The position numbers and the translations under genes are program-made. This document shows positions 54,676-56,041 of a DNA stretch of 64,000 nt, one piece after another. Location of the stretch: IMG/VR virus record IMGVR_UViG_3300042891_001180, one strand, 5' to 3'. Position 1 is the first letter of the stretch. Each line of letters begins with the position of its first letter. Source of the DNA: a virus. The notes under the pieces are model-generated. The model saw nothing but the letters and a program-made list of their open reading frames with translations, did no database searches and was not told the DNA's origin.

Positions 54676-54948
54676 TTACTTCTTACTAATAGTCTTAATG
54701 TTATCTTGAGGGATGTTAGAAACAAAACCATTCAAGACCTGAGCCTTGGCAATAATTTCAGTTTCTGAGGGATAGGCTGGATAGCCTGGATGCTCTGGAG
54801 GTGTCTGGCCGGCATGTTTTGCCGTCTCTACCTTTGTGGCCCAGTCGTTAGATATTACTTCGCGCTTACCGTAGTAGTCGTCACCAAGCATATCTTTGGC
54901 CATTTTGAGAAGTTCGAGACGAATCTCGAAGGGGGTCATGTTACTCAT
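54676..54948 (-). CDS. Conserved T4-like hypothetical protein
   Basis: TPFEIRLELLKMA, YPSE.EII.KA..LN.FVS; AAGGAG RBS. Confidence 0.8.
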   Translation of the reverse strand: MSNMTPFEIRLELLKMAKDMLGDDYYGKREVISNDWATKVETAKHAGQTPPEHPGYPAYPSETEIIAKAQVLNGFVSNIPQDNIKTISKK

Positions 54949-54977
54949 AATAATCTCCTTTGTGTGTATGAGTGTTA

Positions 54978-55322
54978 AAGATGGTAGGTTATTCTGTTAC
55001 GAGGAAACCTACCGAAACCCTAAGCAGTGTTTAGGCTGCTAATGCGAACTTTGAGTCGTTTGCGTTTACTTTTGTTTAGTGTTAACGACAACTCTGTCGG
55101 ATCGTCCATCTTTATACTTATTGCCCTGTCGAATCTAAAACAGGCCCATCATAAAGACTCTTCCATGCGTTATGTGCTTCGAAATAACTTAACCAAACAC
55201 AATGCTCACATGCTCTACCACAACATGTCGTTGGTGGTATTGGTTCTAAGACCTTATGGTGGACCTGAAGGGATTTGCACCCTTGTCCAGAACTACTTTC
55301 GATTAACTTCATACGATCATAA
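54978..55322 (-). ncRNA. ssrA: Circularly permuted two-piece tmRNA: acceptor piece ~55322-55257, intervening segment 55256-55148, coding piece 55147-~54978
   Basis: GGGCCUG/CAGGUCC-A-CCA stem with G3.U70; T-arm AAGGG-UGCAAAU-CCCUU; AGAUUCGAC; tag ANDSKFALAA* at 55063-55031; inter-piece pairing GAUCGU/ACGAUC. Confidence 0.9.
55118..55312 (-). CDS. Oxidoreductase-like N-terminal-domain (CCGxxCxxCVW) protein nested in the tmRNA precursor
   Basis: EPIPPTTCCGRACEHCVWLSY.E....W confined to the tmRNA intervening segment; no SD seen. Confidence 0.5.
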   Translation of the reverse strand: MKLIESSSGQGCKSLQVHHKVLEPIPPTTCCGRACEHCVWLSYFEAHNAWKSLYDGPVLDSTGQ

Positions 55323-55342
55323 TCTTATTTAGGCGACCTAAT

Positions 55343-55392
55343 TCTCAACCGCCCACATATGGATTATACATGCTAGGCAACAACTAATCCAC
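55343..55392 (-). repeat. Copy 2 of the dispersed 50-bp element, immediately upstream of the tmRNA
   Basis: GTGGATTAGTTGTTGCCTAGCATGTATAATCCATATGTGGGCGGTTGAGA. Confidence 0.8.
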
Positions 55393-56041
55393 TCTTTCTT
55401 TCATATAGGTCCCGAAAGTACATTAGCCTCTTTACATGGGTATTTCTACGTTCAACAAACACCTGGGGCTCTTCATCATCTACTGCAATTGCAACCACGG
55501 TTTGAGCAACCGGGATCTTAAACTGCTCTTCAAACATAATGGCATATGCCGAACATTGCATAAAGTAATTCTCAATATCTTTACTATCTTTGAGTCGTTT
55601 AGAAGTCTTAAAGTCAATAACAGATAATACCCCATCAAATTCTGCTACACAATCTACGGTACCAGCAATACGCAAATGATCAGAGTACATACGTAACTCT
55701 TGAGCATAAACGTTATTAATACGATGAAGAGTAGGTTTAAATTTATTAAACAGTTCTTGATCTAGAGGACTCTTAAATGCAGGTACTTTATTATCAATAT
55801 ACTGCTCACACAAAGTATGAATACGGGTACCCCGACCAGACGCCTTTTGTGATATTTTATTAGCTTCTTCTTCACCCACCCTTTTGCGCCACTCCATAAT
55901 ATAACCTATGTTATAAGCGGCAAGAACGGTAGTGATAGAAGGATACTTATTCCCCTCTGGGGTCACATAATACCGTGTACCGTTTTCGTTCAGTTGTTGT
56001 AGTTTGGGGACTTCACGGTCAAGCTTTACATGATTAAACAT
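55373..56041 (-). CDS. PD-(D/E)XK exonuclease
   Basis: YPSITTVL, WR.RVGEEEA, RGT.IH, AGTVDC, IDFKTS, YFMQ..AYA. Confidence 0.9.
   Translation of the reverse strand: MFNHVKLDREVPKLQQLNENGTRYYVTPEGNKYPSITTVLAAYNIGYIMEWRKRVGEEEANKISQKASGRGTRIHTLCEQYIDNKVPAFKSPLDQELFNKFKPTLHRINNVYAQELRMYSDHLRIAGTVDCVAEFDGVLSVIDFKTSKRLKDSKDIENYFMQCSAYAIMFEEQFKIPVAQTVVAIAVDDEEPQVFVERRNTHVKRLMYFRDLYERKSGLVVA

Follow-up and report, generated by a model that had tools for sequence, protein, structure and literature searches.

The intervening spacer of a permuted tmRNA gene in a T4-like lake phage carries a protein frame that, judging from its codon substitutions, is under purifying selection and can be entered only from inside the acceptor piece of the tmRNA. 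The DNA analyzed, IMG/VR virus record IMGVR_UViG_3300042891_001180, comprises 64,000 nt and is referred to in its entirety as the window; the neighboring genes identify it as part of a T4-like phage. We propose that a 64-residue Oxidored-like protein would be read from an AUG in the acceptor piece, via the T-arm, the CCA end, and the spacer, to a UAA in the coding piece, with the unprocessed precursor serving as the messenger. We consider this proposal as a whole moderately probable, and the spacer as such is very probably translated.

ARAGORN recognized a permuted (two-piece) tmRNA with the tag ANDSKFALAA at 54940-55349 on the minus strand, and the same locus matched the Rfam families tmRNA_permuted (RF04321; 110.8 bits, cut-off 47; 55031-55318, minus strand) and beta_tmRNA (RF01850; 107.5 bits, cut-off 84; 54969-55362, minus strand). 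The acceptor stem is tRNA-Ala-like, with GGGCCUG pairing with CAGGUCC to give G3-U70, and is accompanied by an encoded CCA and a tag ending in ALAA. The MFE fold of the locus yields the T-arm and an acceptor stem prolonged by the spacer ends, which pair with each other in a stem that covaries between lineages; the spacer interior encodes the Oxidored-like core. The features of the locus, listed in the direction of transcription, are as follows.

54940..55349, minus strand: permuted tmRNA gene, in the order acceptor piece, spacer, coding piece (ARAGORN, Rfam, MFE fold)
55326..55331, minus strand: -10-like box TAAATA, T4-late-like (a box at the same position in most threaded lineages)
55318-55314, minus strand: strand GAUCG of a 5-bp helix (Rfam structure line)
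55118..55312, minus strand: threaded ORF, 64 codons (ORF list, Pfam PF09791, homologues P0001-P0006)
55310..55312, minus strand: ATG of the ORF, its sole in-frame start, in an unpaired stretch just 3' of the helix strand GAUCG (Rfam structure line)
55257..55287, minus strand: acceptor piece, tRNA-like end with T-arm, acceptor 3' strand, discriminator A, and CCA (sequence, Rfam alignment)
55284-55268, minus strand: T-arm (sequence reading)
55267-55261, minus strand: acceptor 3' strand (sequence reading)
55260-55257, minus strand: ACCA (sequence reading)
55256..55148, minus strand: intervening spacer, 109 nt (sequence reading)
55031..55147, minus strand: coding piece, 5' part, beginning at G 55147 (ARAGORN; the deepest part in the lake metatranscriptome contigs)
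55120-55118, minus strand: TAA stop of the ORF, 27 nt into the coding piece (sequence reading)
55063-55031, minus strand: tag reading frame (ARAGORN)

The tmRNA gene is flanked downstream by a conserved 90-residue gene (54676-54948, minus strand) and upstream by a PD-(D/E)XK-family gene (55373-56041, minus strand). Synteny of the flanking genes is kept in relatives down to about 50% identity, with variable content between the two genes, and tRNA genes cluster beside the tmRNA gene in several relatives (L254:182-1078, L138:1646-2063, L267:23-955). A blastn search of the locus against the INPHARED phages returned no match.

The initial annotation had described a 64-codon ORF running from the acceptor piece through the T-arm, CCA, and the 109-nt spacer into the coding piece, and the ORF list together with direct reading of the sequence bears this out exactly. 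Residues 1-19 are encoded by the acceptor piece, residues 20-55 by the spacer, and residues 56-64 by the coding piece; about 85 bases, including those of the T-arm and CCA end, are common to the protein frame and the mature tmRNA. An in-frame TAA lies five codons 5' of the ATG, and the frame therefore cannot begin farther upstream. RNase P cleavage and 3' trimming would split the frame into three, so that only the unprocessed precursor could be a messenger. Since the ORF spans both mature pieces, we infer from this anatomy and from the selection described below that no other form of the RNA can encode it. Each precursor molecule would become either an mRNA or a tmRNA, the transcript probably serving in one role or the other, and a ribosome caught by the cut would be left with a non-stop message. 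The locus had been interpreted at the outset as a dual-function transcript; of that interpretation, the Oxidored-like ORF under selection and its extension across both mature pieces stand, and translation, initiation on a Shine-Dalgarno (SD)-less leader, and competition with processing are suggested by the sequence. The switch envisaged there may be a selected regulatory device or simply an unavoidable competition, and metal or Fe-S binding by the peptide, likewise envisaged, would be a possible property; neither it nor redox activity is an established feature of the family. In the frame of the ORF, the T-arm region (55264-55288, minus strand) reads G-x-G-C-x-S; its likeness to G-R-G-C-E-G in the Oxidored motif is probably a coincidence, although it could provide microhomology for rearrangements.

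Oxidored-like identity and selection on the threaded frame

Residues 23-52 of the ORF matched Pfam PF09791 (Oxidored-like) with an E-value of 6.3e-9 and 35.8 bits, above the cut-off of 24 and covering profile positions 10-39 of 46, which establishes as real the oxidoreductase-like motif named in the initial annotation; the relatives' contigs scored 34.9-35.5 bits against the same profile. An alignment of 26 sequences (the window ORF and 25 relatives) contained eight invariant residues, and all of them (P24, C30, C31, G32, C35, C38, V39, and W40) are kept in the window. Codon 34 of the window (55211-55213, minus strand) is GCA, encoding Ala, at a position of the CCGxGC motif where Gly is at least 90% conserved. 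This substitution is a singleton among the 14 window-type variants, all others having Gly, and the window allele, with Ala at this position, may be weakened.

In the AF2 model, residues 21-55 have a pLDDT of 82-90, with a helix at 39-54, and the head (residues 1-19) falls below 50; both the head and the tail, which are encoded by the tmRNA, are disordered. NCBIfam and PHROGs searches with the ORF and a Foldseek comparison of the AF2 model with the PDB gave no match, and a profile built from the family alignment matched chain o of PDB 7zm7 (E 2.9e-11). Like members of PF09791 such as human OXLD1 and 7ZM7 chain o of Chaetomium thermophilum complex I, the phage protein has a P-x-x-P and CCGxGCxxCVW core followed by a helix; unlike them, it consists of a bare 30-40-residue core whose ends are tmRNA-encoded. 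Chain o, a subunit of the respiratory complex I of C. thermophilum, is the sole solved chain with an Oxidored-like domain. A non-canonical complex I subunit at the NDUFV3 site has been reported (PMC9699679), to which chain o may correspond, and the structural match may represent a possible lead to a candidate target, the NADH-dehydrogenase module.

With the neighboring PD-(D/E)XK gene as bait, we retrieved 80 viral contigs and identified a permuted tmRNA in 50 of them, and the acceptor end plus five spacer bases, used as a query, gave 118 further loci; these 118 loci, the first 80 contigs, and the window together provided 80 distinct spacers. Searching with the family alignment yielded 61 viral loci (48 threaded like the window), a set that was found through an intact Cys motif and is biased towards intact copies. 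The pooled loci contain 35 distinct threaded spacers belonging to at least three lineages. The same threaded ORF recurs in dozens of related contigs, and spacer lengths of 109 and 115 nt in different lineages differ by 6 nt, which preserves the frame. Decayed alleles were also present, comprising a Cys-to-Tyr change (L010/L011), a frameshift (P0012), and a 58-nt spacer (L017; proteins P0004 and P0005) in which the Cys cluster is lost through an in-frame deletion of 51 nt that spares the C-terminal half of the cassette, and the start position reads ACG. From its sequence, this last allele looks like the decay of a threaded gene. Near-identical phage backbones carry quite different spacers, and one relative with a bare 27-nt hairpin spacer is without the 84-nt (28-codon) block 55163..55246 (minus strand), as seen in an RNA contig of run X4 that joins 55162 to 55247 with 2 letters between them.

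Our codon-model analysis of 31 sequences gave an omega of 0.072 and rejected omega = 1 (2dlnL 117, p 2.5e-27), and shifted frames gave values of 0.5-2.3 and contained stops. The dN/dS test of the spacer that had been suggested alongside the coding interpretation therefore revealed strong purifying selection, with an omega of about 0.07. Within the window-type clade, the loop part of the spacer showed 14 synonymous versus 12 non-synonymous changes, where about 20-25% synonymous changes are expected (omega 0.2-0.3, p 1e-4 to 2e-3). The corresponding counts were 11 versus 3 in the L199-type lineage and 22 versus 8 in the L206/L247-type lineage (omega 0.07-0.13, p 8e-5 to 3e-10), leaving out both the eight motif codons through which the loci had been found and the stem codons.

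Spacer cassettes and free-standing Oxidored-like genes

The spacers of sister phages frequently hold genes of their own. At least 44 of the 66 distinct non-Oxidored spacers contain an SD, a start codon, and an ORF of 22-84 codons, in which the SD forms the 5' strand of the closing stem and the start lies 10-14 nt into the spacer; in 27 of these, a UGA inside the 3' stem strand ends the ORF. One such gene encodes a thioredoxin (PF00085, E 4e-21; L127:213-464, minus strand) and another a GNAT-like protein (L158:3185-3517, minus strand), both inside Rfam-confirmed permuted tmRNA genes that ARAGORN misses because their spacers are long. The dN/dS of the sister cassette families is about 0.1-0.3. 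On this sequence evidence, small genes use the tmRNA spacer as a slot in the phage group of the window, and the threaded ORF is one case of a wider spacer-gene habit that the initial annotation had missed, as it had the several ways in which the Oxidored-like gene overlaps the acceptor piece; our literature search found no paper describing genes inside phage tmRNA spacers. The Oxidored cassette shares with the sister genes the slot, the closing stem, the phage group, and the exchange of cassettes between near-identical backbones. The sister genes, however, are self-contained, with an SD in the 5' stem strand and a stop that is often the UGA of the 3' stem strand, whereas the Oxidored cassette lacks a start codon and takes its AUG from within the mature acceptor piece, so that the excised spacer alone could not encode the ORF. 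In some spacers (L121, L138, L186, and L266), two consecutive small ORFs are present, each with its own SD.

The closest non-threaded relatives of the cassette are genes of 47-62 residues with their own ATG. In L202, L210, and L274, the TGA of the Oxidored-like gene overlaps the GUAUGA with which the acceptor piece begins; in L268-L273, the gene reads across the whole acceptor piece in the same frame as the window ORF and stops 9 nt past CCA; in L266, L267, and L207-L209, the acceptor piece is crossed in another frame with a stop at or just after CCA; and in L204, the gene lies just upstream of the tmRNA gene. Contigs of the L207 type may be either viral or cellular. Among the non-threaded relatives, a nearby tmRNA was not seen only in L277/L278 and L211/L212. 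Compared base for base, the L206 spacer cassette is a close match to the free-standing L202 gene. We suggest that the cassette of the window derives from a phage gene for an Oxidored-like mini-protein, whose core would have been captured in the tmRNA spacer and would have lost its own start and stop. No second Oxidored-like copy that could have served as a gene-conversion source for the spacer was found in the 64-kb window or in the contigs, which are fragments, of five relatives.

A search of genome contigs with P0009 gave, among the matches listed, one distant Pseudomonas locus, and 400 control genomes were drawn from the taxonomic class of the matched genome. Twelve of these contained Oxidored-like genes, amounting to 13 loci, none of which had a tmRNA within 1.5 kb (ARAGORN); the linkage is therefore specific to the tmRNA loci studied here rather than a general property of the family. 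In L202 (2253-2653), a thioredoxin gene and the Oxidored-like mini-gene overlap (ATGA) directly upstream of the tmRNA, a pair restricted to that lineage that may point to a redox partnership. We discarded a wider association with thioredoxin, as thioredoxin adjoins the Oxidored-like gene in L202/L203 only.

Some relatives (L201:2935-3060, and also L235, L020, and L025-L030) carry an extra 41-codon gene between the promoter region and the acceptor piece, with ACG at the site of the acceptor-piece ATG. The apparent N-terminal extension of P0002 was rejected as an alternative frame over this separate, upstream-inserted gene.

Initiation and competing readings

Within the spacer, an in-frame start is conserved in none of the lineages. 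Before the Cys motif, 21 of the 35 distinct threaded spacers contain no in-frame ATG, GTG, TTG, CTG, or ATH, 13 contain an unconserved ATA alone, and one contains TTG. The ATG of the acceptor piece, in turn, is present in 35 of 36 Oxidored-type contexts versus 36 of 67 relatives with other spacers (Fisher 1.2e-6, uncorrected for phylogeny), and its presence in only some of the latter indicates that it is not simply a requirement of the RNA. Translation starting at this AUG is accordingly the reading we favor with moderate confidence, as suggested by sequence comparison. In two contexts, L201 and L235, ACG replaces ATG, the cassette is intact, and the frame is open to an ATG 22 codons farther upstream.

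The two caveats raised in the initial annotation were right, in that the window has no SD before the ATG of the ORF and the ATG adjoins the inter-piece helix; the bases directly 5' of it form the conserved helix with the coding piece. A -10-like box (TATAAT or TAAATA) ends 13-15 nt 5' of the ATG in most threaded lineages (13 nt in the window) and is seen best in the window and L199 types and in part of the L206/L247 type. Because of this position, the leader would probably be roughly 6-9 nt long and devoid of an SD. Initiation would occur on the nascent, still unfolded 5' end with this short leader, which is the least supported step of the proposal. A sigma-70-like arrangement (TTGAGA-N18-GATTAT) was rejected, given that transcription would start at the ATG itself and leave the covarying 5-bp helix strand outside the RNA. 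Coupling through a mini-ORF, AUG-AUC-GUA-UGA (55309-55320, minus strand), whose stop overlaps the AUG of the ORF, was likewise dismissed, its start being ACG in most relatives.

Several other explanations of the threaded frame were weighed. That it arose by chance, as a non-coding ORF across a spacer of structured RNA, has almost no probability. In favor of chance, most relatives have an open acceptor-piece frame irrespective of the spacer they carry, and the ATG is also found without the cassette. The Pfam match above cut-off, the codon-model and count tests, and the fact that the threaded frame spans the whole spacer in only 1 of the 36 ATG-bearing relatives with other spacers all speak against it, and chance is refuted by the coding-type substitutions of the threaded ORF, which recurs in dozens of related contigs. 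The window ORF could instead be a recently silenced relic, with the family signal stemming from relatives or from an earlier free-standing life. The singleton Gly34-to-Ala change at a near-invariant position, the absence of an SD, the decayed alleles nearby (L010, L017, and P0012), and the dispensability of the cassette, in place of which near-identical phages have a different spacer or just a hairpin, would all fit such a relic. However, the frame of the window is intact, with neither indel nor stop, all eight invariant residues are kept, and synonymous changes are significantly in excess within the clade of the window itself, which renders the relic explanation unlikely.

The protein might also be functional with its start elsewhere, at a non-canonical codon in the spacer (perhaps on the excised spacer RNA) or through ribosomes arriving from upstream. 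Sister cassettes use an SD at the very start of the spacer, window-type spacers begin with the half-SD UAAGG followed 12 nt later by an in-frame AUA, and L201 and L235 have kept the cassette without the ATG. On the other hand, close variants have GUA or UUA where the AUA would be, 21 of 35 spacers offer no candidate start, the other two lineages begin with AAAAGA, AAAGGA, or UAAAGA, which are poor SDs, and only contexts with the Oxidored cassette have the ATG almost without exception; a start elsewhere therefore appears quite unlikely. Translation across the acceptor piece might itself be what is selected, as in leader-peptide-like control of tmRNA folding or processing, with the peptide being incidental. 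This idea draws on the observation that all arrangements found (the GUAUGA stop, read-through in two frames, and threading) bring the Oxidored-like ORF up to or across the acceptor piece. It is compatible with the threaded protein, and we regard selection on translation alone as decidedly improbable. A related conjecture is that the overlap with the acceptor piece, constant in four arrangements among divergent phage tmRNAs, is functional, with ribosome traffic deciding tmRNA maturation or with the mini-protein acting as a dedicated partner of the phage tmRNA system. We hold this to be unlikely; if true, ribosome traffic on the acceptor piece would constitute a sensor of translation status built into the ribosome-rescue RNA.

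In Logan contigs from four lake metatranscriptomes, the word depth of the coding piece ranged from 56 to 2223 and that of the spacer from 0 to 23, the spacer being 5 to more than 100 times less deep. This pattern fits a mostly processed precursor, with DNA carry-over being possible; stretches lacking RNA-contig coverage and the small word shares of the runs are given no weight as to habitat or absence. In one 310-nt contig from an RNA library (depth 4.8), the coding piece is joined to the acceptor piece through an Oxidored-type spacer.

Relation to known systems

Intervening sequences of bacterial 23S rRNA carry an S23p-type ORF in Leptospira and Coxiella, and the window ORF resembles these in lying in a stretch excised from a stable-RNA precursor. 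The S23p-type ORF is located wholly inside the excised stretch, whereas the window ORF overlaps the retained functional RNA on both sides. SgrS/SgrT and RNAIII/hld are dual-function RNAs in which the same mature molecule does both jobs. The window transcript would likewise be both a functional RNA and an mRNA, but maturation of the RNA would destroy the frame, making the two roles mutually exclusive in each molecule. A further parallel is arfA, whose non-stop mRNA is regulated by trans-translation (PMC10107115). In both cases, a message cut by RNA processing would lack a stop and its product would be tagged by tmRNA, as the initial annotation had proposed for the cut precursor; this is demonstrated and regulatory for arfA, whereas in the window it would follow as a logical consequence of the anatomy alone.

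Phage copies of permuted tmRNA are described from Melnitz-like and pelagimyophage T4-like phages (PMC9004378) and in a database paper (PMC11915505), and a tRNA-Ala and a repeat element are the only spacer contents mentioned in the latter. The window gene shares with published permuted tmRNAs (RF04321 and RF01850) the order of acceptor piece, spacer, and coding piece, the pairing of the spacer ends, and, presumably, a tRNA-type removal of the spacer, and it shares with published phage tmRNAs their carriage by aquatic T4-like myophages. In the published descriptions consulted, the spacer is treated as discarded RNA; in the window, by contrast, it is protein-coding, and its ORF uses both mature pieces.

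The tmRNA is a textbook stable RNA, and the spacer of its permuted gene, treated as waste, here contains a conserved and selected protein frame. At this locus, one molecule would naturally be contested between translation and RNA maturation, and the locus indicates that bases forming a tRNA-like structure can at the same time encode protein. The Oxidored-like family, to which human OXLD1 belongs, gains a genetic context that is defined and testable. Annotation tools catch half of such loci at a time, gene callers one half and tmRNA finders the other, and protein databases list these ORFs as "hypothetical proteins" with the tmRNA overlap unmarked.
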